DNA of 64,000 nucleotides from Candidatus Omnitrophota bacterium (lineage in GTDB: Bacteria; Omnitrophota; Gorgyraeia; JABMRN01; RBG-13-46-9): assembly GCA_043817155.1 (NCBI GenBank), contig JBDRHE010000059.1:97-64096 (forward strand), given 5' to 3'. The notes under the pieces are model-generated. The model saw only the letters and a list, made by a program, of their open reading frames with translations, had not been told where the DNA came from and searched no databases. A program made the position numbers and the translations under genes. This document shows positions 10,265 through 52,732 of the stretch, in pieces. Position 1 is the first letter of the stretch. Every line of letters begins with the position of its first letter.

Positions 10265-11794
10265 TTACAGTTCAAATGCTTTTTCGATATTCTCTTCGGT
10301 AGCCTCACAAAAAAACATACTCTTATATTTGTCGGCAACAGCGCGTATCTTCTCGGGCTCATTTTCCAATAAATATTCGATTTTTTCTATTTGCCTTCTC
10401 AGTTCTTCGGGGCTTTTTACTTCTTCCCATATGATACCTTTTCCATACTCCGAAAGCGGGTTGCTGTAATCAAATTGCTTGGTTCCCTTAACCGATATGG
10501 AAGGTATGCCGATACTGGCAGCCTCCACAAGTACGCTGCTGGCGGCGCTTACGACAGCTTTCGCGGTTTTAAAAAGCTTGTAGGTATCTTCGTTCGTCAC
10601 CGTCACGTACGGGGGTATGCGAGACATGAATTTTTCTACCGGTAAAGCCGGATGAGCCTTAAGGAGAATGTTTTGCGAACGGAGGTCCGCGTCAGAAAGC
10701 ATTTGCAGTATATTGTCGGCCTCTTCCTTGAAGCATGGCAGTAACACGACGATGTTCTTCTGGTCTTCTTTCTTCACTACGACATCAAATACTTTCGCGG
10801 ACCGTAAAGACGGTCCAAGCGCGTAATTTAATCTGGTTCCCTCCGGAATATAACTTGGGCCATTGGCGATGATCTTATCGGGTATCACTCCGAAAACCTG
10901 TTCATCCTCATCGGGCAGAATGTACAGATAATCCCTCGGATGTAAGAATAGCTGCGCCCCGTAGATACTGGCCTTCCCCGGTTTTGTCCTAAGGCCCATG
11001 TACAAATTTTTGTGTATGGGTTGATTCTCATACCAGCTTATCAGCTTGATCTTCTCGTAAGGCAGCGTAAGGAGCCTTTTGCCTAAAAGATAGCGTGAAA
11101 AACTGTAAAACGTTACCTGTCCCAGTGTCTCTATTAGTTCGTGCCTGATCAACCTCTCTTTATAGGAGCCTCGTTCCAGTGTTTTTGAAAATCTTAATAC
11201 GCGAAAAGGATACGCAAGCATAAAAATTAAAAGGCTCCGAAGATCGCCAAGCGATAGCATCTGGAATTCGGTTACGATAGGCACCTTCTCCTTCTTTAGT
11301 ATACGGAGGGCATCGTATAACTCGAAGGGTCTTTTATAATAAGAGGCGCTGTAAAAAAACGGGATATAAGCAAAATGCTTATTTTTTTTCTTGAGGACCG
11401 CCTCGAGGCCCGGAAAATAAAAATCATGAAAGCCTTGTGATATTTTAATGCTTTCGATTATAAAACAGATATCAATGGCGATAAGCTCCTCCTTACCGCC
11501 GTCAGGATAAAAACGCAGGCCGGATAAGTAATATTCCAAAAACTTTAAAAGATACATAGCCAAATGCAGGAAGCTTTTAGCGTAATACGTGAAAAGTTTA
11601 CAGGTGACTACCCACCACGGTACATTCGGAAAATCTTTTTTATTCAAAAAGTTACTGATGAAATCATTATTTACGGGGTTTTTGCTTAAAACCTGGTTTG
11701 ATATTAAAAAGATGTCTTTGTATGCCTCCTTATTAATCGAAGATATCGCTTCGTAGGCGGCTTTTATTTCATCTGGCATATTGTTTGTGTCCAT
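10265..11794 (-). CDS. Hypothetical protein, possible CDP-alcohol/CMP-sugar-dependent GT-B-like transferase (TagF or KpsC/S-like)
   Basis: No diagnostic motif recognised with certainty; alpha/beta C-terminal region; context only. Confidence 0.3.
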   Translation of the reverse strand: MDTNNMPDEIKAAYEAISSINKEAYKDIFLISNQVLSKNPVNNDFISNFLNKKDFPNVPWWVVTCKLFTYYAKSFLHLAMYLLKFLEYYLSGLRFYPDGGKEELIAIDICFIIESIKISQGFHDFYFPGLEAVLKKKNKHFAYIPFFYSASYYKRPFELYDALRILKKEKVPIVTEFQMLSLGDLRSLLIFMLAYPFRVLRFSKTLERGSYKERLIRHELIETLGQVTFYSFSRYLLGKRLLTLPYEKIKLISWYENQPIHKNLYMGLRTKPGKASIYGAQLFLHPRDYLYILPDEDEQVFGVIPDKIIANGPSYIPEGTRLNYALGPSLRSAKVFDVVVKKEDQKNIVVLLPCFKEEADNILQMLSDADLRSQNILLKAHPALPVEKFMSRIPPYVTVTNEDTYKLFKTAKAVVSAASSVLVEAASIGIPSISVKGTKQFDYSNPLSEYGKGIIWEEVKSPEELRRQIEKIEYLLENEPEKIRAVADKYKSMFFCEATEENIEKAFEL

Positions 11795-11801
11795 GTGCGT
11801 T

Positions 11802-12443
11802 CTATGTCTCTAATATCTGTTTCAAATTTTTCAAATCCTTGACTTTGACACAATCTATACCGGCGAAAATGGAGCCGTTATCGTTGATCTTCGCGATAAA
11901 ACGCGCGGCGTTTTCCTGCGCGGCTCTATAATCGCTTATAGCGTCTCCGATATATACGGCCCTGGCAGGCTCGATTCCTTCTTTCTTGATGATCGATCTG
12001 ACCATATCGGTTTTTTCATCCGGAGCGCCATAGACACCTTGAAAAAAGCCGTTCAATTTTCGCCTCCGGACAATTTCTCGTATTTCATCTTTTGGCGTTG
12101 CCGATAGCACAAAGCACTTATATTTTTCAGAATACTGTTCCAAAAATTCTCTCGCGCCTTTTACATACGGGCATAAGACCACGTCTTCCATAACAAGATC
12201 GGAGAATTTCCTCGAAAGATCCCGAAACGTATCCTCGTCTAACGGTCGCTTAAGCATCTCTTTGTATATATATATAAATTTTTCATACCGCGATACACCC
12301 TCATGAGCCAGATGGTAATCAACCACTTCCTTCACGATTCTTTCGCCCTCATCTTCAAAGAGCCTGGCAAATGCATCGCGCTTGATATTAAGTGATTCCA
12401 CTATGACACCATCGAAATCAAAAAATATTACCTCTGTATTCAT
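11802..12443 (-). CDS. HAD-superfamily hydrolase (HAD-IA phosphatase)
   Basis: FFDFDGVIV motif I (DxD); YIGDAISD motif; start at the internal Met that abuts the upstream stop. Confidence 0.75.
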   Translation of the reverse strand: MNTEVIFFDFDGVIVESLNIKRDAFARLFEDEGERIVKEVVDYHLAHEGVSRYEKFIYIYKEMLKRPLDEDTFRDLSRKFSDLVMEDVVLCPYVKGAREFLEQYSEKYKCFVLSATPKDEIREIVRRRKLNGFFQGVYGAPDEKTDMVRSIIKKEGIEPARAVYIGDAISDYRAAQENAARFIAKINDNGSIFAGIDCVKVKDLKNLKQILET

Positions 12444-12444
12444 A

Positions 12445-13365: not shown

Positions 13366-13369
13366 ACTA

Positions 13370-15950: not shown

Positions 15951-16694
15951 TTATTGTCCGTGTCTTTTAAGCCAATATTCTACCAGCGGCATCTGCCATT
16001 CATAATCTACGTCGAACCCGCCCCATTGTTTTAGCGGATATATTTTTTGCCCCATCCACTTCTGCGGAAGGAGACCTGCCTGGAGATTTTCGAGGCATCG
16101 TGGCCTCACGATAGAGGCCCCCATATCGGCAAACCAGACATCACCCTGCGAGTCTCTGTCGCAATTCAGTGTTTTTGGATCGCCGAAAGCTTCAAATGGC
16201 ACAAACGGCTTTAACAATCCGTCTTCCGCGATCCTTCTTGCTCTCAGCGGACTCCACATGTTATACCGCGATACGGTAACGGCAGAATCGTACTGCGGCT
16301 TGTCTTTCAGAACATTTATCCCTTGAGATAATGTTTCCGACGTAATCGTTGGGGCATTACACATGAGCAAAACTATAAGCTCTATTTGCTCACCCTTGTT
16401 CCTTTCTTTTGCGACTTCGTAGGCGTGAACATAAACATCCTCCCCAAGGGCGCTATCCGCGCATAACCGTGGAGGCCTTTCGATTACTTCCACACCGTTA
16501 GACTTCGCAAGTACCGCAAGGCGGTCATCATCAGTAGAAAGATATATTTTATCCACTAGAGCGCAACCCCTGGCGGCTTTCATCGGGTAACTGGCAAGCG
16601 GCTCTCCTAATACTTTTTTCAAATTCTTTCCGGGAAATCCCTGGCTCATCTTTCTCCCCATAAGTAAAGCAACTATCATTGTCTTACACCTCAC
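15951..16694 (-). CDS. Acylneuraminate/ulosonic-acid cytidylyltransferase family (CMP-sugar synthetase)
   Basis: N-terminal ALLMGRKMSQGFPGKNLKKVLGEPL matches the CTP_transf_3 P-loop region; adjacent SDR mirrors the ptmB-ptmA arrangement. Confidence 0.7.
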   Translation of the reverse strand: MRCKTMIVALLMGRKMSQGFPGKNLKKVLGEPLASYPMKAARGCALVDKIYLSTDDDRLAVLAKSNGVEVIERPPRLCADSALGEDVYVHAYEVAKERNKGEQIELIVLLMCNAPTITSETLSQGINVLKDKPQYDSAVTVSRYNMWSPLRARRIAEDGLLKPFVPFEAFGDPKTLNCDRDSQGDVWFADMGASIVRPRCLENLQAGLLPQKWMGQKIYPLKQWGGFDVDYEWQMPLVEYWLKRHGQ

Positions 16695-19211: not shown

Positions 19212-20326
19212 CTTTTAGCTTTTGAACTAAATCTTGCGAATTCCTTGCCCATAAATCTTCTCTGGCAGTAAAGACAGCTGCCCTGAATATCGCCTTTTAT
19301 AACCACTTCCCGGAAACTCACCATCTTCGGTGTATTGAAATCATAATCTTTATGTATGTTACCTATGTTTCCCCCGTGGCTAAGATGGCAGCAGTATGAA
19401 ACATCGCCATCCGAATTAAAGCAGAAGTAATACCAGGGCTGGACGCATTTCGCCTCCCGAAATGAAGGTGATTCGGGATCAAAGATGTGCGGCAGGCGAA
19501 CGTCAAACGGAAAATTACGCCTCTCAAGCATCTTCGCGAGGAAAATTCGTGTATTTTCATCCTGGAGCGTAAGCGGCGTGTAGCCTTTTGATCCGTGAGG
19601 ATTTATATTATGAAAAACCACGAAACGAGGTTTTATTCTCTCTGATAGTTCCAGCATTTTATCTATAGCCGCGATATTCCCGGTCGAAAGCAGGTATGAC
19701 ACCGAAAAGTTCATATCTCTTTCCCTTAACATGCCAAGCCCCTCCATTATCGAATCAAATCCCGCTTGAGCGCCTCCTCTGGCTTTCTCATATGATTCGT
19801 AATCGTAGGCGTCCATACTAACGTTGATATAGTCCACCCGCGAAAGTCGGGAGATCTTATTTTTTATAAGGACGCCGTTGGTGGATATCTTGACGGTCAA
19901 ACCATGGTCCTTGCATATGCTAACAAGGTCTTCGATCTCGGGATGCAAAAGCGGTTCGCCTCCTGTCAGAAAAACAGTCTCAGCCATCTTAGGGGCTTTG
20001 TATTTCTCAAGCGCAGCGCGAAATTTCTCCGCGGTTATGTAGCTGGGAGTGAACTTATCAGGATCCCTGAGAAGATACAGGCACGTCGGACACCTCAAGT
20101 TACAATTGTCAGTGATTGTGGCCACAAATATCGGTGGAATAAAATCAATTTTTGATCTTCGCAGCACGCTTCTATCATATCGCAACCTGTTTAGATGCTT
20201 TTTGATGCTCCCGGGTTTTCTAATTGTTTTGTAAGGCATTCTCAAAAGCCCCATGTACCTATCCGGTAGTTTAGGCCTGAGATTGCGTTTTACCTGTTTT
20301 TTGCTATACGCTAAATTGTGCATCAT
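19193..20326 (-). CDS. Radical SAM / SPASM-domain enzyme
   Basis: DNCNLRCPTCLY; C-terminal CVQPWYYFCFNSDGDVSYCCHL...CLYC. Confidence 0.8.
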   Translation of the reverse strand: MMHNLAYSKKQVKRNLRPKLPDRYMGLLRMPYKTIRKPGSIKKHLNRLRYDRSVLRRSKIDFIPPIFVATITDNCNLRCPTCLYLLRDPDKFTPSYITAEKFRAALEKYKAPKMAETVFLTGGEPLLHPEIEDLVSICKDHGLTVKISTNGVLIKNKISRLSRVDYINVSMDAYDYESYEKARGGAQAGFDSIMEGLGMLRERDMNFSVSYLLSTGNIAAIDKMLELSERIKPRFVVFHNINPHGSKGYTPLTLQDENTRIFLAKMLERRNFPFDVRLPHIFDPESPSFREAKCVQPWYYFCFNSDGDVSYCCHLSHGGNIGNIHKDYDFNTPKMVSFREVVIKGDIQGSCLYCQRRFMGKEFARFSSKAKRWTIER

Positions 20327-22088
20327 ACAACCTTTTGTACAATCCGTCTTTTTCTAAGAGATCCGCGTGACTGCCTTCCTCGGAAATGCCGCCTTCGCTC
20401 AAAACGATAATATTGTCGGCGTGCAAAATTGTCGAAAGCCGGTGAGCGATAGCTATGACCGTGCGATCCTTTGTCAGTTTATCTATTGATTCTGTTATCA
20501 AACGTTCTGTTTCCGTATCCAGGGAGCTGGTTGCCTCATCTAACACCAATATTTCAGGATTATGCATTATGGCCCTCGCGATGGAAAGCCTCTGCTTTTG
20601 GCCTCCCGAAAGCTTCACACCCCTCTCGCCAAGCACCGTATCGTAACCGCGCGGGAGGGCCGCTATAAAACTGTGCGCGTTTGCAGCCTTTGCGGCTCTG
20701 ACAAGTTCCTCCTGCGAAATATCCGAATGCCCGTACGCGATATTCGCTTTTACGCTCACGTTAAAGATAAAAGCATCCTGGGAAACAAACCCTATCTTTC
20801 TCCTCCACTCCTTTAGCGAAAGGTCCTTTATATCTATCCCGTCCACCAGTAAGACGCCTGATTTCAGATCATAAAATCGCAATATCAGATTCACGATAGT
20901 ACTCTTGCCGGCACCCGAGGCTCCGACAAGAGCGGTTATCTTACCATTGGGTATAACGATACTTACGTCTTTCAAAACCTCGCGGTCTTGCATATAGGAG
21001 AAGCTGGCATGTTTAAACTCAAGTGAGTGAGAGAATCTGTCGATCATCTTTTTTCCGCTCTTTAACGTCCTCTTGTCGCTCTCTTCACACATTCTCTCGT
21101 AGTTGGTAAAAGCCGCCAGATTGCTCATTGCCTCCGCGCGTCCGCTATTCAGGGTATTTAGCTGGGTGAGCGTCTTCCCGAGCACAAGCAGGTAGGTGGC
21201 GATTAATGGAAACGTGCCGGCAATGTTTATTTTAGATACGTTTATAGCCACCAAAAAACAGATGACGACGATAGTGAATATCAAAACTTCACATAAGGGC
21301 ATAATGAGATATATATATTTGTTATTCTTGAATTGAAAATGCCACAGATTTTTAACAACGGCTTTAAAATTTCTCTTTTCCAGGTCCTCGGTACTGCACT
21401 GCTTTATAAGTCTTATTCCGCCCAGGATCTCCGTAAGTTTATAATTGAAGTCGGCCAATGCGGCTGACAGATTTATCCCGATTTTCTCCAACTTCTTCAT
21501 GATAAATTCAAGCGGTAGAATAACCATCGCTATCAACGCAAACACAACGATGCTCAGCTTCCAAGAAATCAAAAATAGAAGTAACATATAGGCGCACACC
21601 CTTCCTGAAAGAGCTATAAACTGCAATACCGCCAACGCAAAATTGCCGATACGCTCCACTTCATAACTGATATTACTGATAATGTGGCCGATCTTCGCGC
21701 CGTCAAAGAAGGATGTATCGTATTCCAGTAACTTATTCATGAGCCTGAGGCGCAGATCTCTTACGAGATTAAACCTCAATCGGGCTATCAGAAGATTGGA
21801 AAAATATATAAATACATTTTTAAATATCACTAAAAAAAGCAGCAGTATGAAGATGGCGGATATTATGGTCCCCTGGTTAACTGCTTTAACTGAAAGATCT
21901 AAATTTTCTATAAAAGGTATCTTCTCGATTAGACCCGTAGCATCGGTCGTCATCGCCTTTATAAGAGGTATAAGCATCGCGAAACTCGCGCCTTCAAAAA
22001 GCGACGCAACTACAATTAAAAATACGACCGAAACAGAAAGAATCGGGTATCGCTTCAGATAATTATAGGCAATCGCTACGAGTGTCAT
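20304..22088 (-). CDS. ABC transporter, fused permease/ATPase (MsbA-like exporter)
   Basis: Six TM helices N-terminal; Walker A GASGAGKST; signature LSGGQKQRLSIARA; Walker B ILVLDEATSSLD. Confidence 0.9.
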   Translation of the reverse strand: MTLVAIAYNYLKRYPILSVSVVFLIVVASLFEGASFAMLIPLIKAMTTDATGLIEKIPFIENLDLSVKAVNQGTIISAIFILLLFLVIFKNVFIYFSNLLIARLRFNLVRDLRLRLMNKLLEYDTSFFDGAKIGHIISNISYEVERIGNFALAVLQFIALSGRVCAYMLLLFLISWKLSIVVFALIAMVILPLEFIMKKLEKIGINLSAALADFNYKLTEILGGIRLIKQCSTEDLEKRNFKAVVKNLWHFQFKNNKYIYLIMPLCEVLIFTIVVICFLVAINVSKINIAGTFPLIATYLLVLGKTLTQLNTLNSGRAEAMSNLAAFTNYERMCEESDKRTLKSGKKMIDRFSHSLEFKHASFSYMQDREVLKDVSIVIPNGKITALVGASGAGKSTIVNLILRFYDLKSGVLLVDGIDIKDLSLKEWRRKIGFVSQDAFIFNVSVKANIAYGHSDISQEELVRAAKAANAHSFIAALPRGYDTVLGERGVKLSGGQKQRLSIARAIMHNPEILVLDEATSSLDTETERLITESIDKLTKDRTVIAIAHRLSTILHADNIIVLSEGGISEEGSHADLLEKDGLYKRLYDAQFSV

Positions 22089-25383: not shown

Positions 25384-25389
25384 GATCTC

Positions 25390-27229: not shown

Positions 27230-27302
27230 CTCTTCTCACTCGTATCCAAATGAGCGGTTTTATATCGTCGAAAATAAGGATTTGAGATTCAAATCCGTGT
27301 CA

Positions 27303-27322
27303 TCCCCGCGAAAGCGGGGATC
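27303..27322. terminator. Strong GNRA-tetraloop hairpin ATCCCCGC-GAAA-GCGGGGAT in the 197-bp spacer between two sub-operons. Candidate terminator, processing or regulatory site. A second interrupted hairpin lies at 27365-27402.
   Basis: 8-bp perfect stem (6 GC) seen in sequence; only weak U tracts flank it. Confidence 0.35.
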
Positions 27323-27426
27323 CAGAAGTATATCTTTCTAATGCATTTGTTATTTACGCCTGGATTCCCGCTGGAGTTTAGACCGCAGCAGCGGTCCGGG
27401 AATGACAAACATTCTTATTTGGACCG

Positions 27427-30118: not shown

Positions 30119-30127
30119 ATTAATCTC

Positions 30128-31336: not shown

Positions 31337-31353
31337 CGGTCCTCCCTTACATT

Positions 31354-42349: not shown

Positions 42350-43686
42350 TTTTTCGGTTTCACAATTTTAACGAATAGACTACCGTACCTGTCATTTGCA
42401 GCCACACCGATTGTGTCAATATCATCGGCATGTATCGAGTCATAATCAAAGGTGTATGACCATTTATCCAAAGAAGTGTCAAAATCAAAATTGTCGTGAA
42501 TAAAGCGACCCGTCTTCGTTTTTACAGAGAGGAAAGGTTGTGGGCCAAAAACTTTTCCCTCTACCGTTTCTACTTCCAGAAATGCCCTTTCGGCACTATC
42601 TTTAAAAGATACTTTAAGCTCAAGGGGTTCAAAGCTATTTCCGTCGCAATAAATCGCGGATCTAAACGCATCTACTGCTTCGCAAAATTTGAATTTGACA
42701 TCGGGATATCTTTTGCTTACATGACTGATTATATCTCTTGCAAAATCAACTTCATACGCCATATTGCGAAAATCATGGTTGGCGATACCCATGATCGTCG
42801 GTTTTCCGTCGCGGGCTCTTAAGAAGGCTTTTTCGACTTCATCAGGCGTAAGCTCCCTGCCCCTGGTTTTTATATCGAGGCATCTGCATATCCACCGCCT
42901 GCAGTTACCGGGAATTTGATAATTATCGTGGTTTGGTTGGTAAATAGACCAGTCATCCGGCGCCAACCTCCAGTCGCCGGACCGGCCGCCGGCTATGTCA
43001 ATTTGGTTCTCATGAACATCGTTCTCTTCCCGATATGCCCAGTTACTTGCGTCAAAGGGTACCCACTGTTCCAGGAATAGATGGCTGTCCGGCCGCTCTG
43101 TTTGAAAGCCTGCTCGAAACGCAACCGGAAACCAATTTCGTTCAATAATTCTTCTGCAAAGAATTTCATAAAGATACGGCGAATTCACATAACTTGTAGC
43201 GCAGCGATGAGCCTCTTTATACACGGACATTGGGTGAAAATGCCAATGTATTCCGTCTTGACTCGATCCGGTTCTTTCTTTCATCTGTTTGTAGTGGTCG
43301 AATATTTTATGGAAGCCCATATCGCGCCGCCTCGGATTGTGCGCGTAATTAACGTGGTCCACACAATACCAATTATATACCCATCCGTTCCCGAATGAAT
43401 CGAGCGCCTTATTTCTGAACTCCGGACTCATGACTTTTATAAGCATTGAGTCGATCTTCCCCCACGTATCGTTATAACATAAATTTCGGCTGCTAAAAAT
43501 GCTTGCGATAACGTCCGTATTTTTTCCGAAATCGATACATTTATCCTGAATGCGTTTTAAGTTTTCCCTTGTTGGCTCCAACGTTATGCCGAACATTTCA
43601 TGCAATCGTTGAAATGTTGCCTCTAAAGACTCATATAAAGGGCCTTCCGCATCTACACAGTGAATGATATAAACGATCTTTTCCAT
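42346..43686 (-). CDS. Hypothetical protein (446 aa), possible carbohydrate-active enzyme
   Basis: No confident motif; His/Asp-rich segments (DHVNYAHNP, WHFHP). Confidence 0.3.
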   Translation of the reverse strand: MEKIVYIIHCVDAEGPLYESLEATFQRLHEMFGITLEPTRENLKRIQDKCIDFGKNTDVIASIFSSRNLCYNDTWGKIDSMLIKVMSPEFRNKALDSFGNGWVYNWYCVDHVNYAHNPRRRDMGFHKIFDHYKQMKERTGSSQDGIHWHFHPMSVYKEAHRCATSYVNSPYLYEILCRRIIERNWFPVAFRAGFQTERPDSHLFLEQWVPFDASNWAYREENDVHENQIDIAGGRSGDWRLAPDDWSIYQPNHDNYQIPGNCRRWICRCLDIKTRGRELTPDEVEKAFLRARDGKPTIMGIANHDFRNMAYEVDFARDIISHVSKRYPDVKFKFCEAVDAFRSAIYCDGNSFEPLELKVSFKDSAERAFLEVETVEGKVFGPQPFLSVKTKTGRFIHDNFDFDTSLDKWSYTFDYDSIHADDIDTIGVAANDRYGSLFVKIVKPKK

Positions 43687-43802: not shown

Positions 43803-45032
43803 TTACCGTGCCATATCTTCATAAACTGTTCTTCTCAATTTCCATTTGCCGTCTTTGTTTTCCCATAAATGGGGCGATCGAAATTTTTCACAAAGTTCCA
43901 AAAATTCCTCTTTCTCCATGCCGATATACTCCATTACTTCGTCAAAATACTTTATAGGAAATTCTCCGTCGAACCTCCGGACAAGGGCCTTTCCTTCCTC
44001 CCTTGTAAGGTGCTTGTTGCGGATCTCCTGGGAAGCATCATAGGTAGCCCGGCCGATACCGAACTTTATATAGGTTGCGTAATACTGCAATCCGTCTATG
44101 CGATCGTCCAGACTGTTATATTTACTGTAAGTCCCTTCTGTCCTTTCCGGGTTTGCCGCGAAACCGGTATGCTCAACGGCGTAATAATAGGACTCCTGGG
44201 GCGTCCATTTTAAGTAATAACCGAGATAGTTCACCTTGATTTCGGATCGTTCCAACTGCTTATAGTCAGCCGGCAGATAGGTCTGTATATCATTCGCTGT
44301 TAAGCCGTGCTTTTCCATTAACTCTTTAACGCTTGCGCCGGCAATGTAGATTTCATCTAAATGCCGCATTGTATAATACGATTTGCCCCTGAGAGACGTA
44401 TTGGTATCGGCAATGGGATTGCCGTATTCGGCTTCATTTTCGCCGTAAAAAACAAGCAGAATGCCGAGCCTGGTCGCGAGTTTCGGCGCCAGATTTTTTT
44501 GGCCCAGAATAAACGGTTGAAAAGGGTGTAACAGATTTCTGATAGCTAACCTGGTTAACAGAGCGTGAACCCTGCCGTTGTAATTAAAGGATATATTGTC
44601 AAAGCCGCCTACGTCGATCCAGTTTCTAAAATTCTTCCATCCGATCTCTGTGTAAATGATAGGCGGCCAGGTTACTGTAAGCGGGTGCATGCCATATTTA
44701 TATTTTAGAATATGCGCCGCGTATGCGCTGTCTTTTCCTCCGCTTCCGGGCACGATACAATCATAATTACCGTCTTTCCTTCTATATTTTTCGAGAAGTC
44801 TTAAAAGCTCTTCTTCGCGGGTTTTCCAATCAATCTCTTTCTTGCGTTCGGCAAAGCGACACGCGTCGCATACGCCTTCTTTATCAATAAAAAGTGTCGG
44901 CTTCTTCTGAGTTACCGTGTGCTTAAATTCAGGCACTGACGAGGGCCTTTGGTTCGACATAACACAGCGCTTACAAAACTTTACAACTTTCGGTAAGCCG
45001 TATTTTGCCTCGAGTTTTTGCGTTTCTGCCAT
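43803..45032 (-). CDS. N-acetyl sugar amidotransferase (WbuX/PseA/AglX-like, PP-loop ATPase)
   Basis: N-terminal Zn-ribbon CKRCVMSNQRP...CDAC; PP-loop CIVPGSGGKDS. Confidence 0.8.
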   Translation of the reverse strand: MAETQKLEAKYGLPKVVKFCKRCVMSNQRPSSVPEFKHTVTQKKPTLFIDKEGVCDACRFAERKKEIDWKTREEELLRLLEKYRRKDGNYDCIVPGSGGKDSAYAAHILKYKYGMHPLTVTWPPIIYTEIGWKNFRNWIDVGGFDNISFNYNGRVHALLTRLAIRNLLHPFQPFILGQKNLAPKLATRLGILLVFYGENEAEYGNPIADTNTSLRGKSYYTMRHLDEIYIAGASVKELMEKHGLTANDIQTYLPADYKQLERSEIKVNYLGYYLKWTPQESYYYAVEHTGFAANPERTEGTYSKYNSLDDRIDGLQYYATYIKFGIGRATYDASQEIRNKHLTREEGKALVRRFDGEFPIKYFDEVMEYIGMEKEEFLELCEKFRSPHLWENKDGKWKLRRTVYEDMAR

Positions 45033-45034
45033 CT

Positions 45035-45718
45035 CTATCTATTCTCCTTTTTTCTGATCAATTCAGCCCAATTTTGGTATATCTTAAGGCCCTGCCCGGC
45101 GCTTCTTTCCGGATGAAACTGACAGGCAAAAATATTATCACGCTCAAGACTTGAGCAATACCTGATGCCCTCATAGGATGTGTATGATAACACGCTATCA
45201 TGCGTATCCGGCGCCACAAAGTAGGAGTGCACAAAATACATGAATTCCCCATCCCGGATGCCCCTTAACAGCGAGTCCTCCCAATAATCACCCTTTTTAT
45301 CATCGGGCCTCTTTAACTTATTCCATCCCACCTGCGGCACCTTCATGCCTTTATTGGAATCCCTTCCGGAAGAAAAGTTGACAACGGAACCTTTTATTAT
45401 ATTCAGGCCCTCGTGAACACCGAACTCTTCACTTTTCGTAAGCAAAAGTTGCATCCCTAAACATATACCCATAAAAGGTCTCCCCGTACCGATAAAGTCT
45501 TTGATCGGGCCTGCCAGATCCAATTTTTTAATATTACGCATGGCAATTCCAAACGCTCCCACGCCCGGCAATATTGCCGAGTCGCTGTTTACTATACCGG
45601 CGCTATCTGAAGTAATAAAGGCGCTTAGCCCCGCGTGTTCACAGGCCCGCTTTATGCTGAACAGATTGCCCATACCGAAATCTATTATAGCAACGTTTGA
45701 CTTAGAATTTACCGGCAT
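45035..45718 (-). CDS. HisH-like class I glutamine amidotransferase (WbuY/AglY-like)
   Basis: VAIIDFGMGNLFS; GVGAFG; catalytic ICLGMQLL; FHPE. Confidence 0.85.
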   Translation of the reverse strand: MPVNSKSNVAIIDFGMGNLFSIKRACEHAGLSAFITSDSAGIVNSDSAILPGVGAFGIAMRNIKKLDLAGPIKDFIGTGRPFMGICLGMQLLLTKSEEFGVHEGLNIIKGSVVNFSSGRDSNKGMKVPQVGWNKLKRPDDKKGDYWEDSLLRGIRDGEFMYFVHSYFVAPDTHDSVLSYTSYEGIRYCSSLERDNIFACQFHPERSAGQGLKIYQNWAELIRKKENR

Positions 45719-46589
45719 AAACGTCTTTCCCCTTTAGCGCTTCCCTGCATGGTATCCCGTGTTCGGACAGGAAGAACTTTATCTCGCTTAAGTTTGTCGG
45801 TCTAATTTTAGAAAAGATACGTCCGCTCTTTGCATACTCGAGATTTCCTTCGAGAGTATAATCGCCTTCATTAATTTTTCTGCGTTTGATGAAATCGTAA
45901 TGCAGAATTGAGGCAAAGCTTACTGCGTCAGCCTTCCCGTCAATAATTACATCTTTAATGTGGCCGGTTTGGCCTGCGCCCCCACAGGCTATGACCGGGA
46001 TAGACACTGTCTCCGAGATTTTACGCGTTAACTCCAGGTCGTAACCGATCCCCGTTCCTTCGCGATCAACAGAGGTCAGCATGATCTCACCGGCGCCAAG
46101 TTCGGTAACCCGCAAGGCCCACTGGCATACATCCATTCCGGTATGCTCTCTGCCGTTGTCGGTAAAGGCCTGGTAGCTGCCATCCGGTTGCTTGATAGCC
46201 TCTATAGAAATAACGATGGTTGATGATCCGAATTCCCTTGAGGCTTCACGAATGATGTCCGGGTTATTGATAGCCGCGGTATTAAGACTTACCTTATCCG
46301 CGCCGGCACGCAAGACCTCTTTTATGTCCCGAAGAGTCCTTATCCCCCCGCCGACCGTCAGGGGTATAAAAATGTCCCTGGCTGTCTTCTCGATTATCCG
46401 ATTCAAACTGTTGCGCCCGTATAAGCTGGCGACAACATCCATATAGATAAGTTCGTCCGCTCCGGTTTCGTAATAATACTGCGCGAACTCTTCGGGTTTG
46501 CCCAGAACCCTCAGGCCTTCCAGGTGAATGCCCTTGACTAAATTGGGCCCTTTAATATCCAGACGCGGTATAATTCTTATGTATTTCAA
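45702..46589 (-). CDS. HisF-like cyclase subunit (WbuZ/AglZ-like)
   Basis: RIIPRLDIKG...DELIYMD...TVGGGIRTLRDIKEVLRAGADKVSLNTAA is the HisF (beta/alpha)8 signature. Confidence 0.85.
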   Translation of the reverse strand: MKYIRIIPRLDIKGPNLVKGIHLEGLRVLGKPEEFAQYYYETGADELIYMDVVASLYGRNSLNRIIEKTARDIFIPLTVGGGIRTLRDIKEVLRAGADKVSLNTAAINNPDIIREASREFGSSTIVISIEAIKQPDGSYQAFTDNGREHTGMDVCQWALRVTELGAGEIMLTSVDREGTGIGYDLELTRKISETVSIPVIACGGAGQTGHIKDVIIDGKADAVSFASILHYDFIKRRKINEGDYTLEGNLEYAKSGRIFSKIRPTNLSEIKFFLSEHGIPCREALKGKDVYAGKF

Positions 46590-47308
46590 AACCCGCTTTC
46601 CTTATTTAAACGTGAATCTATAACTGCTTTGGCTAACGTAAGATCTTTCCTGGTATCGATATCTACAACCGTTTCGTTTACAATCATCGCTTTAATCCTG
46701 TCGCCGTAAATCGAGTAAAGAAACCCCGCCTTATATGGAATTTCTTTTGTAAATTTTTTATAAAATTTCTGCGCTTCAAACACGAGTGTATGGCCGTCAT
46801 GAATCATAAGCTTAGGCAATGCCTGCCTTCTGTAATGCGCTTCCCTCTTCATGGGTAGTTCGCGGTCAGTAAATTCAAACATCCATTCCGGATGATACTT
46901 CTCGATTCTTTGCATACTGATGACGGCGTCATAACTCCGATTTTTTCTTAAAAAAACAATGGCATCATAAAATAATTGTGGATACCGCGTCGGAATATTT
47001 CCGTATACGAGACTGCAATATCGGTACCCGGCCCCCTCTCTCTCGATAGCATCTGCCAGTACGTCATCGATCCTGCTTGCGTCACCGCACAACTTGCTTG
47101 GCCTGCTGATGTATGGAATTTTCTTCCTTTTGCAATAACTTATTACCCGCTCAATATTTGTCGATACGACCGTTTTTACCTCCTTCCCCAGCGACAAAGA
47201 GTAATCGATAGCGTATTCGGCCGCCATTCTGCCCCTTATTCCTCTGGTGCACTTGTCTCTTAATCCCTTGCTGCCTTTTCTTGCGCACACAACTGACAAT
47301 GTTTTCAT
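46586..47308 (-). CDS. Acylneuraminate cytidylyltransferase family
   Basis: LSVVCARKGSKGLRDKCTRGIRGRMAAEYAI P-loop-like region; weaker than the other paralogs. Confidence 0.55.
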   Translation of the reverse strand: MKTLSVVCARKGSKGLRDKCTRGIRGRMAAEYAIDYSLSLGKEVKTVVSTNIERVISYCKRKKIPYISRPSKLCGDASRIDDVLADAIEREGAGYRYCSLVYGNIPTRYPQLFYDAIVFLRKNRSYDAVISMQRIEKYHPEWMFEFTDRELPMKREAHYRRQALPKLMIHDGHTLVFEAQKFYKKFTKEIPYKAGFLYSIYGDRIKAMIVNETVVDIDTRKDLTLAKAVIDSRLNKESGF

Positions 47309-47319
47309 AATAAATTCCC

Positions 47320-48780
47320 CTAAAAGATATCGATTCCGCCATGCTCGGCACGGTGCTTTAATAATGCTTCGTCCTTAAAATAATCATCAGCCATGTCTCC
47401 GAAAAGATTCGTCAACTTGGCCATGTAACTTTCCTCGGTCTCCGGTTTGATTCGCGAGCGTACCTCGGATATCATCTCTTCTCTTTTGGAAATAAGTTCG
47501 GTATCTGTAAACACATTGGTTAAATTAATAAGAAAATCTCTGGCGTCCCCCATGGACATCACAAAATCATGTATTCGGTCCTTTTTGATTCGGCCTGTTC
47601 TGAGAGCGTACTCAAAAAGTTGCGTTCCCGGGTACGGCACGGCAAACATAATGGATTTTAGTGGTATATTATTTCTTACGCAAAACTCTACGGTTTTGCG
47701 GCATGATTCAACGTCCTCTTCCGGCATCCCTATCATAAAGCTTATAGGTAACATCATCTTATATCGCCTGTTTAACACGACCGCGTTCTCCATCTGGGCT
47801 ATCGTCACGTTCTTCCCCATAGACGCGAGCATCCCTTGAGAGCCGGATTCAAATCCATAAGATATGGACACACATCCGGCGCTCTTCATCCTTCGCACAA
47901 TATCATCGTCAACAAGGTTAACGCGCCCGGTACAGGACCACAAAAGTCCCGGAACGTTTCTCTCGATCTTCTCACAGAACTCATATATGCGTTTCTTTCC
48001 CATCAAAAACTCGTCATCCTGAAAAGAGATAAAGTCCACTTTATATTGTTTCCTTAAATACACAAGCGCCTCGACTATAAAATCAGCCGAATGCGCCCTG
48101 AAATTTCTACCCCAGGGTTGATAACAAAATACGCAGTCGTATGGGCATCCCCGGCTTGAGATAAAATCTATATCCCTTCCAAGACCTACCACGGGATTGG
48201 AAAGGTAAATTTCCATCGGAAGTAAATCGTAAGCCGGCAGATCGCTTTCGATATCGAGGTCCTGCAGTAGCTCCTGTTTCCCGGAACATATTATTTCGCC
48301 GTCAATTTTAAAGTAAAACCCCTTTACATTCGTCAATTCGCTAAAGGCGCCTCCTCCGGCCAGTCCTTCGATAAGGTCAACCATAGCCTTTTCACCTTCA
48401 CCCGCGCAAACAATATCTACATTCGAATGACGCAGCAAGACCTCGGGTACCGACATTGCCACGCTGCCACCCGCGATCACTATTGCCTCCCGATTTATTG
48501 CTTTTATAATGCCGGCATACTCGACAATAACCCTGTAAACCGGTATTAGACCTCCCATAAGGACTATATCAAAAGGCATCGAATTCAAAATTGACTTTAG
48601 CTCCGTTTTTGTATAGCGATGCGCGTTAGCGTCTATAAACGTTGGAGTTATACCCGTCTTCTTTCGAATAACATTCGCCAGAATAGCCAGGCCATGAGGT
48701 ATGTGCCTCGGTTTATCGTTTAAACGTATCGGAGGATTAATAATTATTATTCTGGGTAATTTTTTATTCAGTTTTGTCAT
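47320..48780 (-). CDS. Cobalamin-binding radical SAM enzyme
   Basis: B12-like N-terminus (IVLMGGLIPVYR...VIAGGSVAMSVPE); SSRGCPYDCVFCYQPW. Confidence 0.8.
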   Translation of the reverse strand: MTKLNKKLPRIIIINPPIRLNDKPRHIPHGLAILANVIRKKTGITPTFIDANAHRYTKTELKSILNSMPFDIVLMGGLIPVYRVIVEYAGIIKAINREAIVIAGGSVAMSVPEVLLRHSNVDIVCAGEGEKAMVDLIEGLAGGGAFSELTNVKGFYFKIDGEIICSGKQELLQDLDIESDLPAYDLLPMEIYLSNPVVGLGRDIDFISSRGCPYDCVFCYQPWGRNFRAHSADFIVEALVYLRKQYKVDFISFQDDEFLMGKKRIYEFCEKIERNVPGLLWSCTGRVNLVDDDIVRRMKSAGCVSISYGFESGSQGMLASMGKNVTIAQMENAVVLNRRYKMMLPISFMIGMPEEDVESCRKTVEFCVRNNIPLKSIMFAVPYPGTQLFEYALRTGRIKKDRIHDFVMSMGDARDFLINLTNVFTDTELISKREEMISEVRSRIKPETEESYMAKLTNLFGDMADDYFKDEALLKHRAEHGGIDIF

Positions 48781-50546
48781 TTTGATTCCAACAGTTGCAA
48801 CCTTGCCATCTGGTTAAAATGGCCGCCTATCTCAATTAGCTCGGAATACGCCCCTTCTTCGACTACTTTTCCGTTTTTTAACACATATATATAGTCGGCA
48901 TTAGCGATCGTTGAAAGACGATGGGCTATTACTACAATGGTGGTCTCCTTGGCGATTCTCTCAACAGCCTGTTGAATTAACCGTTCGGATCGCGTATCCA
49001 GCGAACTTGTAGCCTCATCTAGAATCAGAAGAACCGGCTCCCTAAGAATGGCCCTGGCAAGCGCTATTCTCTGGCATTGGCCGCCTGAAAGACAAATACC
49101 GCGATCCCCAACCATTGTACCGTAGCCCTTGGGAAACTCGCTTATGAATTCATCCGCATTGGCTAAAACGCAAGCGCGTTTGATACCTTCGTTTGTTGCG
49201 TCCTCCTTAGCCCAGAGAAGATTATCTTTGATGCTCATATTAAAGAGAACGCTCTCTTGAGGTACATAACCTATCCTTTTGCGATAAGAATCGATATTGA
49301 AGTCCCGTAAATCAACGCCGTCAAACATGATTCGGCCTTCTCTTGGCTCATTAAACCCCATGATCATATCAATAAGTGTTGACTTCCCTGAGCCTGATTC
49401 GCCTACGATCGCTACCATTTTTCCTTTTGGAATTTTTATACTAATATCTCTCAAAGCCAAATCATGATCAGGATAGGCAAATGAAACATTCTCAATGTAT
49501 ATAATTTTCTCGAATTTTATAAAAGAACGTTCACCTGATCCTTGCTTCAAGATCTCAGCCTCCGTCTTGAGCTTTTTAATCTGTTCGTAACTGGGACAAA
49601 AATTTGCTAACGCATTATTTTGAGTAATTATGGTTGCCAACAGCGGAATAACATATCGCAATGCCAAGAAGATAACGCCTATGTCCGATAAGGGTACCAT
49701 CAATCTTTTAGAAACCAAGAAACCTATTACAATGACCAATACACCAACTGGTTCATAAATAAGCGGGATCGACTCTTTAAGGGTATTCGCCTTCAGTACA
49801 ATTTTGCGTAAGGTATAAAGAGAGCGAGCGGTCTTTTCTATATTTTTTTTCTGATTTCCGAAACCAATTATCAGTTTAGCCAAACTTAAGCTCTCCTGCA
49901 TAACATGTGTTAATTCATTGGAACTGTTAGTCGCTTCCTTGCCAAGATTGTATCCTATGCCACTTAAATAATAAATAGGTGCAGCGAATAACAAACTCAC
50001 CATTAAGCTAATGGAAGTTACCTGCCAAGAGAGGTAAAATGGTATACTGAGATAGAATATTATCTGCAGAAAACAAGAAAGAAGCATTACCGCCGATCTA
50101 AAACCCTGCCCTACCATCTCCGTTTCGCGTGTCAATGTGTTAAACAGTGTCCCTTGCCTGTTACTGCTGAAAAATAACCATCGTGCCGAAAATATCTTCT
50201 CGAGAGTTTCGACAAAAATAGTGCGCCACACAACATTCCAAGTCTTTAGCGCCGTCCATCGTGCCAAAAGATAAAATGCATTTCTCAGGATCTGGAAGAG
50301 TAGAAAAAAAACAAGATAAGTACCCAGCGTAAGTGGTAATCCGAGGCTCTTGAATAATGTTACGATTTTTTGCGTAAGAACACTGATGCCTTGAGCTCCA
50401 GGGGACACAAAATAGTCAATAATGGGCGCAATGGAACAAAAAGACAACACCCCAAAGACGCTTACCGCAAGCAAAACCAGAGTATTAAGAATGAACAAAA
50501 AAGGAAATTTTTTAAATAGTTCGTAAAAGAATATAAGTACCTTCAT
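48777..50546 (-). CDS. ABC transporter, fused permease/ATPase (second MsbA-like exporter)
   Basis: Walker A GESGSGKST; signature LSGGQCQRIALARA; Walker B LLILDEATSSLD. Confidence 0.9.
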   Translation of the reverse strand: MKVLIFFYELFKKFPFLFILNTLVLLAVSVFGVLSFCSIAPIIDYFVSPGAQGISVLTQKIVTLFKSLGLPLTLGTYLVFFLLFQILRNAFYLLARWTALKTWNVVWRTIFVETLEKIFSARWLFFSSNRQGTLFNTLTRETEMVGQGFRSAVMLLSCFLQIIFYLSIPFYLSWQVTSISLMVSLLFAAPIYYLSGIGYNLGKEATNSSNELTHVMQESLSLAKLIIGFGNQKKNIEKTARSLYTLRKIVLKANTLKESIPLIYEPVGVLVIVIGFLVSKRLMVPLSDIGVIFLALRYVIPLLATIITQNNALANFCPSYEQIKKLKTEAEILKQGSGERSFIKFEKIIYIENVSFAYPDHDLALRDISIKIPKGKMVAIVGESGSGKSTLIDMIMGFNEPREGRIMFDGVDLRDFNIDSYRKRIGYVPQESVLFNMSIKDNLLWAKEDATNEGIKRACVLANADEFISEFPKGYGTMVGDRGICLSGGQCQRIALARAILREPVLLILDEATSSLDTRSERLIQQAVERIAKETTIVVIAHRLSTIANADYIYVLKNGKVVEEGAYSELIEIGGHFNQMARLQLLESK

Positions 50547-50570
50547 CCCTTTATCTTTCTATCTTCAAAG

Positions 50571-51515
50571 TTAGTCGATATCCATAAGATCCGTATACAC
50601 TTCCTGAAGAAGTGACGCGTTCGGATAATAATCCAAGAAATCCTTTACTGTCGAACGGTAGTCATTTTTATTTGTATCGGAAAAATAGTTTTTCCAAATA
50701 CCGATTTTTCCTGTCCAGCCACGCGGATACTTGGTTGAATTACTGCTGTTGTTCTCGGTATGCTTTTTGGCACCTTTTACAATTACGTTACACTTCTTCG
50801 CGCAATCCTGACTCACTGGAAATCCAACCAAGAAATTAGACATCACATTCAACGTCTCCTCTGTTTTTAAGACAAAGTCCTCGTATTTCAGTATCAGTGA
50901 CCTTTCTGCATTCCTGAAACGCAACCAATCAACCATCCAGCTGAGTGTCGCATTTAGATATCCTTCCCGTATCAAACATTGGAGGGATTCATTTATATCA
51001 ACTCCGTTTCTAAAAACCCATCCAGGAACCGGATAGACATTAGTCTTTACCCATCCGTTCTTTTCGTGCTCCTCTGCCGAAATAAGATAATCGCAAATGT
51101 TGCAATATAATGCAACAATCTGATCTGCAGGATGCCTTAACAGTATAATGTACTTAACTCCCAACAACTCTAAAACCTTCAGATTCTTGCCTGTCGCGCG
51201 TGTGTGAAATTTTAATACCCCTCCTTTCGGAAAGTCTTTTACCAATTCGGGCCGTAAATCCGAATCCCTGTTGGCGAGCATATATTTCGCATAGGACCTT
51301 GATTTCTTACTGACCATAGACAGAATCTCGGCGACGCATGAACCGATAACCGAAGAGGCGGACTTTGGTATAGCCGCTATAATTGTGAGGCGATCTTTAA
51401 AATAATTCTCTTTTAATTTTTTATTAGCTTCTTTGTTGGCTAGCAGATCCCTAATGGCCGCAATAACAGAAAACGGCAGATGTCTCATCTCGGGGATCTG
51501 GTTAGATCTTTTCAT
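50571..51515 (-). CDS. Putative sulfotransferase-like protein
   Basis: Degenerate 5'-PSB-like IIAAIPKSASSVIGS and 3'-PB-like YIILLRHPADQIV; tentative. Confidence 0.35.
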   Translation of the reverse strand: MKRSNQIPEMRHLPFSVIAAIRDLLANKEANKKLKENYFKDRLTIIAAIPKSASSVIGSCVAEILSMVSKKSRSYAKYMLANRDSDLRPELVKDFPKGGVLKFHTRATGKNLKVLELLGVKYIILLRHPADQIVALYCNICDYLISAEEHEKNGWVKTNVYPVPGWVFRNGVDINESLQCLIREGYLNATLSWMVDWLRFRNAERSLILKYEDFVLKTEETLNVMSNFLVGFPVSQDCAKKCNVIVKGAKKHTENNSSNSTKYPRGWTGKIGIWKNYFSDTNKNDYRSTVKDFLDYYPNASLLQEVYTDLMDID

Positions 51516-52732
51516 CCCAATAACTCCTTATTCTGACGTAAAAATTCCGAGCCAATCCGCAAAAGAAAGAGTTTATTTAGGTAGCTGGGTTTAAATAGAG
51601 ACCAGAAGCTACGCTGGAGCTCCTCATCCTCTTCTGTGGTTCTCCATCTTCCGTTCAAACGATCATCCATCTCACGAACCATATCAGCGATCTCCTCCGG
51701 TGTATTGTCAACCACCTCTATCCCTTCCTCAGCAAAATGCTCGGTCATAATGAACCTGCCCACACCGGAATCTATGACCTCCCGGAATGTTAATAAACGG
51801 TCCTCGCCTTTCCTACGATACTTCTTGGCAATTAAGAGCCCCCTGGAATCCCATGTAGGAATATACTCAAGGGGAGCTAGGTTTGACCACGCTATCGGCT
51901 TTCGAAAAATCCATGGAACTGTAACAAGGCCCGAGGCAGAACTTATAAAGAATCTGCAATTGGCGCATAGATAGATATCCAGAAAATCGTCTCTACACTT
52001 TGTCGCATAATCTATAATTCTCGGGTTCTTAACTCTTAGTGGCGCATTAACAGCGGCGCCCATTCTCACAACAAAGTATCCACGCATGACCAACTCTTCG
52101 GCCGTCAAGATATAATTTTCTACATCCACATCCTTGTAATCCTGATAGCTTGAATCAAGCTTTGGATGAATTTTGTCAAGATAGGCCGAATCCCTTGCAT
52201 GAAAACAGACAAAGGGAACACCTTGTGGGATTCCCAACTCTCTCAACTTCTTCTCCCCAATCTCAGTCTCCTTTTTGGTAAAGAAGAGGTGGGGCGATCT
52301 CAAGCAGTAACCACTTATATCCCTATCCGTAGGCAATTCGATGGTGTGCAATTTTCCACCCGGCAAAAATCTGTTAACCTTATCTAGAACGTGTGCATAC
52401 TGAAATATATGTATGTGGCGGCCCAGCATCCTCTTAAGCTGTTGATTGCATACCTCATACATAGACTGTAAATAGAAGATGTCTATCGTTCTCTTGCCGT
52501 ACTCATCATCATCACGTTTGCAAAGATAATGTTCCGTTTGAGCGGCGAAGTGGCCGATTCTACTGCTTGCCAGAAATCCAAAACGCATAGTGATGATAGG
52601 GCGCAATAGCCGCACAATGATAACGATTAAGAATGCCGGAGGCATCGATAATAGGATAGCGCACTTTTGCCTAAAGACACGCAATCCACCATTGGTTATC
52701 ATTCTTATTTGGCGCTTAAAAAACTCTGTCAC
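51512..52732 (-). CDS. Hypothetical protein with N-terminal TM helix, possible GT-B-like glycosyltransferase
   Basis: Hydrophobic N-terminus; no firm motif. Confidence 0.3.
   Translation of the reverse strand: MTEFFKRQIRMITNGGLRVFRQKCAILLSMPPAFLIVIIVRLLRPIITMRFGFLASSRIGHFAAQTEHYLCKRDDDEYGKRTIDIFYLQSMYEVCNQQLKRMLGRHIHIFQYAHVLDKVNRFLPGGKLHTIELPTDRDISGYCLRSPHLFFTKKETEIGEKKLRELGIPQGVPFVCFHARDSAYLDKIHPKLDSSYQDYKDVDVENYILTAEELVMRGYFVVRMGAAVNAPLRVKNPRIIDYATKCRDDFLDIYLCANCRFFISSASGLVTVPWIFRKPIAWSNLAPLEYIPTWDSRGLLIAKKYRRKGEDRLLTFREVIDSGVGRFIMTEHFAEEGIEVVDNTPEEIADMVREMDDRLNGRWRTTEEDEELQRSFWSLFKPSYLNKLFLLRIGSEFLRQNKELLG

Follow-up and report, generated by a model that had tools for sequence, protein, structure and literature searches.

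The stretch of DNA analysed here (the window; 64,000 nt of contig JBDRHE010000059.1, from a metagenome-assembled genome (MAG) of Candidatus Omnitrophota) carries about 55 open reading frames (ORFs) in one continuous minus-strand array, with a GC content of 42-46% and a GC skew that is uniformly negative throughout. We are concerned with seven large ORFs in this array, labelled T1 to T7 (Table 1), which an earlier reading of the DNA without database searches (the sequence-only reading) had described as lacking any motif that could be placed and had put forward as the missing transferases for sugars activated with cytidine monophosphate (CMP). The seven had been located correctly, at exactly the positions given in Table 1 and all on the minus strand, and since all of them have homologues elsewhere they are real genes and not chance ORFs; T3 and T6 are 100% identical to the Candidatus Omnitrophota MAG proteins ABID09_04450 and ABID09_04490, respectively, whose contig is 137 kb long. 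None passes the gathering threshold of a Pfam-A family, in line with the lack of motifs claimed for them, but T7 is a member of the NCBIfam family TIGR04372, T5 and T4 are the halves of one frameshifted gene, which leaves six genes instead of seven, and one more Pfam-less ORF (409 aa; Table 1) had not been listed. We hold with moderate confidence that these six genes are of two kinds: five candidate transferases of the GT-B type (T1, T2, T3, T5+T4 and T7), which stand as such by fold and context, and one, T6, which has no resemblance to GT-A or GT-B proteins and would instead be a non-transferase enzyme of a nonulosonic acid (NulO) pathway. The earlier observation is in this sense partly confirmed, and its interpretation partly supported.

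The window encodes five CTP_transf_3 domains (Pfam), one of them fused to a family 2 glycosyltransferase (GT2) domain, and the five CMP-sugar activations assumed earlier were thus counted correctly; of the glycosyltransferases (GTs), the two GT2 genes and the GT2-CTP_transf_3 fusion recognised earlier are present, but a GT-C-like PMT_2 protein has to be added to them. Cytidylyltransferases of the CTP_transf_3 (KdsB/NeuA) type make CMP-ulosonic acids, and those of the TagD/IspD type make alcohols activated with cytidine diphosphate (CDP). Each of the five GT-B-like genes lies within ~4 kb of a cytidylyltransferase gene, with T2 and T4 directly abutting one; this adjacency, and the match in number, five to five, speak for the five as candidate transferases for CMP-activated sugars. 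They fall into four sequence families, all of them named but barely or not characterised: a relative of TIGR04326 (T1), a relative of BFO_1060/DUF6716 (T2), PFTS_polysacc (two genes, T3 and T5+T4) and TIGR04372 (T7). The use of CMP-sugar donors is suggested by the neighbouring CTP_transf_3 genes and by a remote kinship to proven NulO transferases, and we further infer the pairing of each transferase with one cytidylyltransferase, as well as its acceptor.

Table 1. Genes and domains of the window referred to in the text, with positions counted from the first nucleotide of the window.
Feature	Position	Strand	Basis	Setting
T1, 509 aa, candidate GT-B-type transferase, weakest case	10265-11794	-	Weak family matches	
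T2, 653 aa, GT-B-like, large unnamed ~640-aa family	22085-24046	-	Profile/family matches	
T3, 677 aa, predicted GT-B fold, PFTS_polysacc superfamily	32808-34841	-	AF2, Foldseek, jackhmmer	
T4, 404 aa, C-terminal two-thirds of frameshifted PFTS-type GT-B gene	39380-40594	-	Homology	
T5, 228 aa, N-terminal third of the same gene as T4	40648-41334	-	Homology	
T6, 446 aa, soluble, unannotated, predicted beta/alpha domain and beta-sandwich	42346-43686	-	AF2, homologues	
T7, 406 aa, TIGR04372-family glycosyltransferase	51512-52732	-	NCBIfam	
CTP_transf_3 cytidylyltransferase	15951-16694	-	Pfam 1.2e-14	Closest to T1
GT2-CTP_transf_3 fusion	24016-25383	-	Pfam	Immediately upstream of T2
CTP_transf_3	25390-26133	-	Pfam	Next to GT2-CTP fusion, upstream of T2
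CTP_transf_3 cytidylyltransferase	37665-38303	-	Pfam	Downstream of T4, with PtmE-like gene
CTP_transf_3 cytidylyltransferase	46586-47308	-	Pfam 2e-6	Closest to T7
CBS-NTP_transferase, PtmE-like	38335-39399	-	Pfam	Immediately downstream of T4
Ldh_2 and GFO/IDH/MocA oxidoreductases	29081-31390	-	Pfam	Conserved partners of T2 and T3 families
Sulfotransferase	41321-42349	-	Pfam Sulfotransfer_3 9e-27	Between T6 and T5/T4
409-aa PP-loop ORF, then HisH-like and HisF-like genes, as a trio immediately upstream of T6	43803-46589	-	Pfam for HisH, HisF	
409-aa PP-loop ORF alone	43803-45032	-	SGGKDS PP-loop in translation; no Pfam match	Immediately upstream of T6
MsbA-like fused ABC exporter	20304-22088	-	Pfam ABC_membrane + ABC_tran	Immediately downstream of T2
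MsbA-like ABC exporter, second copy	48777-50546		Pfam ABC_membrane + ABC_tran	
GT2 gene	820-1737		Pfam	
GT2 gene	9250-10233		Pfam	
PMT_2 protein, GT-C-like	2815-4806		Pfam	

T3 belongs to a rare family of ~20 relatives or clusters, mostly from Omnitrophota, and the alignment of these relatives yielded an AlphaFold2 (AF2) model with a pLDDT of 85 and a pTM of 0.88. Structure prediction followed by Foldseek, the check that the sequence-only reading had proposed, came out in its favour here: the model has 144 matches in the PDB at E<1e-3, with a probability of 1.00 and E-values down to 4e-8, and the 50 matches listed are all GT-B proteins, with GT20 trehalose-6-phosphate synthases, UDP-N-acetylglucosamine (UDP-GlcNAc) 2-epimerases including NeuC, TagF and the TagF-like Cps3 capsule polymerase at the top. 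T3 is thus predicted to adopt a GT-B fold with two Rossmann-like domains; a sequence and profile search of the PDB returned nothing for it. Its assignment to the PFTS_polysacc superfamily is indirect, as T3 has no direct match to TIGR04417 and one of 20 members of its family matches this model at 3.7e-5, with jackhmmer tying both T3 and T4 to a protein annotated with PF27878.

T4 resembles the C-terminal part of T3 (T4 residues 88-376 against T3 residues 377-661, 27% identity, E 1e-18) and matches TIGR04417 (PFTS_polysacc) at 7.8e-7, with a score of 28.4 bits that is below the cut-off of 100. In L001, one of the related loci from other genomes and plasmids (designated by L-numbers), the gene after that for a T6 homologue encodes a sulfotransferase and the next one a 628-aa Pfam-less protein, with which T5 aligns over residues 2-222 (E 2e-13) and T4 over residues 242-620 (32% identity, E 3e-59). 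In tblastn searches the two halves lie in different frames, with the switch falling between ~40690 and ~40648; ahead of the TTG start of T4 its frame stays open and the homology continues, to ~40648, and the two frames overlap by ~40 nt. Since both halves align to one 628-aa protein, in different frames, we regard T5 and T4 as a single gene for a ~630-aa paralogue of T3, which would have inherited its GT-B fold through this paralogy and has been split by a frameshift; either the gene is a genuine pseudogene or the assembly is wrong at this point. As a single disrupted gene, the pair matches the evidence of pseudogenes that the sequence-only reading had named as speaking against its proposal. 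As a possible origin of the frameshift, a short imperfect repeat close to where T5 and T4 meet was weighed and dropped, with only ~17 nt being similar by eye. Compared with the TIGR04417/PF27878 proteins, T3 and T4 are alike in size (630-700 aa) and in their polysaccharide-locus context, but given the low score of T4, the lack of a direct match for T3 and the uncharacterised function of these proteins, the family names them and does not explain them; a literature search for the 'PFTS motif' found nothing relevant.

The family of T2 is large, with 814 cluster representatives (at 50% identity) found at E<=1e-3 and 306 at E<=1e-30, typically of 630-650 aa. Among 63 diverse members, 34 match NF046086 (BFO_1060) with their C-terminal domain (best 4.6e-8) and 35 match DUF6716, a 'putative glycosyltransferase' family in Pfam, which is also where a few matches to Epimerase_2 (n=8), Glyco_transf_4 (n=4) and Glyphos_transf, the TagF family (n=2), were obtained. 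BFO_1060 is the strain 92A2 orthologue of Tanf_01245/TFUB4_00887 of Tannerella forsythia, whose deletion removes the terminal pseudaminic acid (Pse) or legionaminic acid (Leg) derivative from the O-glycan and for which a GT-B/TagB-like fold was predicted by the authors (PMC5420450). The T2 family and this group are alike in that both are soluble, two-domain GT-B/TagB-like proteins in NulO loci, with the C-terminal domains of the former matching the model of the latter. However, T2 itself scores 17.4 bits against a cut-off of 200 bits (E 0.0018, profile positions 211-279), is ~200 aa longer, has an unrelated N-terminal region, and is accompanied by GFO, Ldh_2 and CTP_transf_3 genes rather than by the canonical Pse/Leg set. 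T2 is therefore distantly related to the T. forsythia Pse/Leg transferase family without belonging to it; no other enzymes of this kind have been anchored by genetics. A GT-B fold for T2 is suggested by the weak family matches over the 63 members and by the alignment of the T2-family and T3-family profiles in hhalign (193 columns of the C-terminal domain, E 5e-5, probability 67%); sequence and profile searches found no PDB relative of T2, and tblastn against plasmids found a partial match only.

The genes around T2 recur as a module (22085-31390 in the window), with GFO/IDH/MocA, Ldh_2, CTP_transf_3 and the GT2-CTP fusion as recurrent partners of T2-family genes (L005, L093, L094). The pair formed by the GT2-CTP fusion and CTP_transf_3 adjoins T2-family genes in L005 and L094, and Ldh_2/GFO orthologues with 44-73% identity are found beside genes of the T2 or T3 family in L005 and L093, as are members of the same Pfam families in L094. 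The module suggests a CMP-activated acidic sugar. In L093 it additionally contains 2-hydroxyacid dehydrogenases, a protein resembling ketol-acid reductoisomerase (KARI), a short-chain dehydrogenase/reductase (SDR), a PMT_2 protein and a GH57 protein, and NeuB is absent near the module.

T7 matches TIGR04372 over profile positions 2-207 of 207 with 234.1 bits (E 1.1e-69), far above the cut-off of 45, and is the only one of the seven with a clear membrane anchor, at its N-terminus (residues 25-43). It is 39% identical to a protein annotated as TIGR04372 by the Prokaryotic Genome Annotation Pipeline (PGAP) on plasmid pDCAR1 of Solidesulfovibrio carbinolicus, whose gene lies in a locus with pseB, pseC and Maf (L012, record positions 101452-109831). 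This locus and window positions 51512-63613 have in common, besides TIGR04372, a transketolase C-terminal subunit, class I methyltransferases, a radical S-adenosylmethionine (SAM) enzyme (60% identical) and an RmlD-like protein, the partner genes lying at 52749-63613 in the window. A scan of genome and viral collections for T7-related loci gave zero, and nothing relevant to TIGR04372 was found in the literature.

T1 is the weakest case among the five. It matches TIGR04326 (NCBIfam; LIC13510 type) at 1.9e-7 over residues 343-466 (profile 446-571 of 602), but its 29.9 bits fall far short of the cut-off (250), so that it does not belong to the family, and it has further weak matches to NeuC (9.6e-4), PseG (0.056) and heptosyltransferase II in NCBIfam and to Glycos_transf_1 (0.012) in Pfam; all five of these weak matches to GT-B families fall on residues 341-479, in a C-terminal Rossmann-like domain with the motifs K379-A-H-P and VVSAASSVLVEAASIGIP. 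The metagenome scan found one locus with a detectable homologue, L011 (50% identity), where the gene lies immediately downstream of a CTP_transf_3-like ORF and where both the K-A-H-P strand and the S-S-x-x-x-E-A motif are conserved; tblastn against plasmids found nothing. For both T1 and T7, the fold assignment comes from family names and weak matches and should be read as provisional.

By profile, none of these proteins resembles the KpsC/S-like or sialyltransferase-like kinds that the sequence-only reading had envisaged. KpsC/KpsS (Capsule_synth), the sialyltransferase families GT29, GT38, GT42, GT52 and GT80, and Maf had no Pfam match at E<=0.1 in the seven ORFs, nor were any of these families seen in the 63 T2-family members (for Capsule_synth, likewise at E<=0.1), and a scan of the 55 window ORFs found no MptE-like (Maf) domain. 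The known transferases that use CMP-ulosonic acid donors, GT99 (WbbB), GT107 (KpsC), GT118 (the KpsS1 Pse transferase) and GT140 (KrkA), have GT-B-derived folds and negligible mutual sequence similarity (PMC12887879), and for this reason further unassigned families in a locus of this kind are plausible rather than surprising; the four families are a precedent for such transferases being missed by annotation from sequence. None of the four is among the 50 Foldseek matches listed for T3, whose model looks like a canonical and not a reduced GT-B fold.

The structural neighbours of T3 would also accommodate a different chemistry, in which the GT-B-like proteins, above all those of the PFTS type (T3 and T4-T5) and T2, are TagF-like phosphotransferases or polymerases that use a CDP-activated donor, transfer a phospho-linked unit and release CMP. 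We consider this unlikely. TagF (3l7j and related, E ~5e-7) and the Cps3 polymerase (8qoy, 5e-8) are indeed among the top Foldseek matches of T3, which shares the GT-B architecture of TagF/TagB and the capsule polymerases; two T2-family members match Glyphos_transf, as mentioned, and the T. forsythia NulO transferases have been described as having a TagB-like domain. However, no significant sequence match to TagF/TagB was found, T3 and T4 have K-x-K instead of the His motif, the cytidylyltransferases of the locus are all of the CTP_transf_3 type, with none of the TagD or IspD type that would supply a CDP-alcohol, and the sole relatives with experimental backing are transferases of Pse or Leg. 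In T1 and T2, a K-x-H-P-like strand is followed by an S-S-x-x-x-E motif, and we take these to be reminiscent of the TagF motifs.

Still less probable, in our view, is a role of some of the candidates, chiefly T1 and T3, as nucleotide-sugar hydrolases or 2-epimerases of the NeuC/PseG kind, filling a step for which no gene was recognised in the window. The window has no Epimerase_2 gene (Pfam), T1 has the weak NeuC and PseG matches described above, eight T2-family members match Epimerase_2, and the best TM-scores of the T3 model (0.6-0.65, target-normalised) are to UDP-GlcNAc 2-epimerases including NeuC. Such scores are, however, expected to be high for any canonical GT-B fold, all the sequence matches are far under the family cut-offs, the proteins in question exceed NeuC in length by 130-300 aa and have extra domains, and in L005 a T3 orthologue occurs in the same locus as an ordinary Epimerase_2 gene.

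We therefore continue to favour transferases for CMP-activated sugars, while acknowledging several observations that weigh against them. The proteins with the best TM-scores to T3 are non-transferases, and TagF-type phosphotransferases are also among its top matches; T1 is far under every curated cut-off; PDB sequence and profile searches returned nothing that would tie T1 or T7 to a solved structure; neither is linked to the T2 or T3 families, as single-sequence hhalign comparisons were not significant and jackhmmer found no connection; and T5/T4 may be non-functional. Moreover, none of the window ORFs matches NeuB, a KdsA-type synthase or NeuC in Pfam.

T6 differs from all of these. It has 1843 relatives at the level of protein clusters, none with a Pfam domain and every named one a 'hypothetical protein', and the 120 best of these, which belong to Omnitrophota, Bacteroidota, Deltaproteobacteria and Nitrospirae, share 53% identity or more with it. 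A pattern scan found carriers in at least 334 species-level genomes from more than 10 phyla, including Acidobacteriota, Verrucomicrobiota, Nitrospinota, Pelagibacteraceae, Rhodospirillales, Trueperaceae, lineages of the Candidate Phyla Radiation (CPR) and Firmicutes. The family has no meaningful Pfam match even at E<5 and T6 no NCBIfam match, and neither sequence and profile searches of the PDB nor tblastn against plasmids returned anything. The AF2 model of T6 (pLDDT 91, pTM 0.91) predicts an alternating beta/alpha region (residues 1-345) followed by a beta-sandwich (residues 356-446), and Foldseek gave no GT-like match: in the PDB, only the immunoglobulin (Ig)-like C-terminal domain was matched, with 0 matches at E<1e-3, and in BFVD the sole significant match to the whole model was an uncharacterised protein of Catovirus CTV1 (A0A1V0SB23, E 1.5e-6, TM 0.36-0.40). 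Judged by this model, the fold has no recognisable relative among the solved structures. Glycoside hydrolase or deacetylase beta/alpha-barrels (CE4, GH57, GH38, YdjC) were considered and rejected, as there was no sequence or structural match to them; hhalign comparisons of T6 with GH57 and with YdjC gave no signal.

T6 has no hydrophobic segment and is strongly conserved: in the same loci, its median pairwise identity is 47.8%, compared with 40.2% for NeuB and 33.9% for the cytidylyltransferase. Over all contexts, 66 columns reach an invariance of at least 97%; H9, D12, E14, H149, H151, H304 and D305 are among them, and many Arg and Trp residues are also among the near-invariant positions; the invariant His/Asp/Glu cluster suggests a metal site. 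L027, L064 and L089 (Nitrospinaceae, Methyloversatilis and a gammaproteobacterium) each contain a pair of T6 paralogues, separated by 5-9 kb.

We examined the neighbourhood of T6 in 80 fetched loci, within 10 kb around the gene. NeuB and CTP_transf_3 are each found in 50 of these, PglD-like and PtmE-like (CBS-NTP_transferase) proteins in 48 each, DegT in 39, the amidotransferase/HisH/HisF genes in ~27, NeuC in 25, and a sulfotransferase in 22, in 12 of the 80 directly adjacent to T6. When the count is restricted to the 45 loci that extend for 8 kb or more to either side of T6, NeuB is present in 33, both NeuC and PseG are absent in 18 of those 33, and a full Leg gene set without NeuC is present in 13. 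The typical order of such NeuC-less Leg operons is CTP (LegF), an ORF we refer to as u310, NeuB, PglD (LegH), T6, PtmE, LegB and LegC. A second arrangement, consisting of T6, a sulfotransferase and a PFTS-type GT-B gene in the same order, recurs in the window, L001, L002 and L004; a variant occurs in L008 and L020, where T6 comes immediately after the sulfotransferase and the PFTS-like gene follows after a DegT gene.

Because of its conservation, its solubility and its operon position, we interpret T6 as a biosynthetic enzyme that acts on a common small-molecule intermediate, and not as a GT with variable acceptors; it is probably not a transferase, therefore, but an enzyme of NulO biosynthesis. 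Judging from its genomic context, T6 would hydrolyse or otherwise process a nucleotide-linked or N-acetylated 2,4-diamino-hexose precursor. The most economical reading makes it a hydrolase or hydrolase/epimerase on a nucleotide-linked diamino-hexose, in the position of LegG; alternatively, it might be a de-N-acetylase preceding sulfation or carbamoylation. T6 fills the operon position of LegG/NeuC and PseG, and the logical gap left by them, in at least 13 NeuC-less Leg-type operons, but its predicted fold is wholly different and not GT-B-like, and in 25 of the 80 loci it is found together with NeuC. We tentatively suggest that T6 founds an undescribed family performing a core step of Leg-type NulO biosynthesis, either as a non-orthologous replacement of LegG/NeuC or in a new precursor step leading to N-/O-sulfated and carbamoylated NulOs. 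That T6 is instead a GT of new fold, as its lack of an assignable family or known fold, its position beside a sulfotransferase and a GT-B-like gene at some loci and the continuing emergence of ulosonic acid transferase families such as GT118 and GT140 might invite one to think, is very improbable, since it is set between the biosynthetic genes NeuB, PglD and PtmE in compact operons, is more conserved across phyla than those enzymes, whereas transferase candidates diverge fast, is soluble without a membrane segment, and has an invariant His/Asp/Glu cluster that would seem more at home in a metal-dependent hydrolase or isomerase site than in a known GT site.

Other genes recur at the T6 loci. 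The u310 gene, which is absent from the window, is a conserved ORF of ~310 aa between the cytidylyltransferase and NeuB in the NeuC-less Leg-type operons (L091:4102-5043), with homologues in ~24 loci (e.g., L067:7332-8249 and L092:7930-8883); it has no Pfam match and shows a GT-A-like signature, with a DSDD motif after an N-terminal beta-strand, and could be the NulO transferase of those operons. A DUF4910/DUF2172/HTH_47 protein is encoded right after PtmE in the two Leg-type operons checked (L091:8938-10260, L092:12867-14177). Genes for the supply of 3'-phosphoadenosine 5'-phosphosulfate (PAPS), namely adenosine 5'-phosphosulfate (APS) kinase, CysN/CysD-like proteins and ATP sulfurylase, adjoin T6/sulfotransferase loci (L009/L010 18840-21332, L013, L018, L019, L024, L026) and also a T2-family locus (L093:1-1107), which is consistent with sulfated NulO glycans; literature on NulO and sulfotransferase clusters yielded nothing relevant.

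The remainder of the window is rich in enzymes that may modify sugars. According to Pfam, it encodes seven B12-binding and six other radical SAM enzymes (four of the latter with a SPASM domain), about a dozen class I methyltransferases, two sulfotransferases, a carbamoyltransferase and a HisH/HisF pair. This density of radical SAM enzymes and methyltransferases is unusual for a single co-directional glycan locus and implies that the activated sugars are extensively C- and O-methylated or otherwise tailored. The 409-aa PP-loop ORF presumably forms, together with HisH and HisF, an N-acetyl-sugar amidotransferase trio that introduces acetamidino groups. ATP-binding cassette (ABC) genes similar to the two MsbA-like exporters of the window are also found near T6, T2-family or PFTS-like genes at other loci.

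Taken as a whole, the locus could operate as follows. Each cytidylyltransferase would activate a differently tailored ulosonic or nonulosonic acid, with the radical SAM enzymes, methyltransferases, sulfotransferases and carbamoyltransferase providing the tailoring; the C-terminal Rossmann domain of a dedicated GT-B enzyme would bind the resulting derivative of a CMP-ulosonic or CMP-nonulosonic acid, and the enzyme would transfer the sugar, at the cytoplasmic face, to a growing glycan on a lipid- or protein-linked acceptor; and the product would be exported by the two MsbA-like ABC transporters, after which the PMT_2-type GT-C protein may act. A search of the literature on glycosylation in Omnitrophota found nothing relevant.

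In the pathways of bacterial sialic-acid-like sugars, least is known about the transferases, and the few families characterised so far (Maf, the T. forsythia enzymes, GT118 and GT99/107/140) share almost no sequence similarity. The locus described here offers a compact test bed for the donors used by four more families, TIGR04372, PFTS_polysacc, the TIGR04326-like and the BFO_1060/DUF6716-like proteins. The GT-B candidates belong to kinds that are known, if uncharacterised; what could be new is the T6 family. Widespread, strongly conserved and unannotated, it may explain how the Leg pathway runs without LegG in many bacteria, among them SAR11, Acidobacteriota and Verrucomicrobiota, or how sulfated variants arise.

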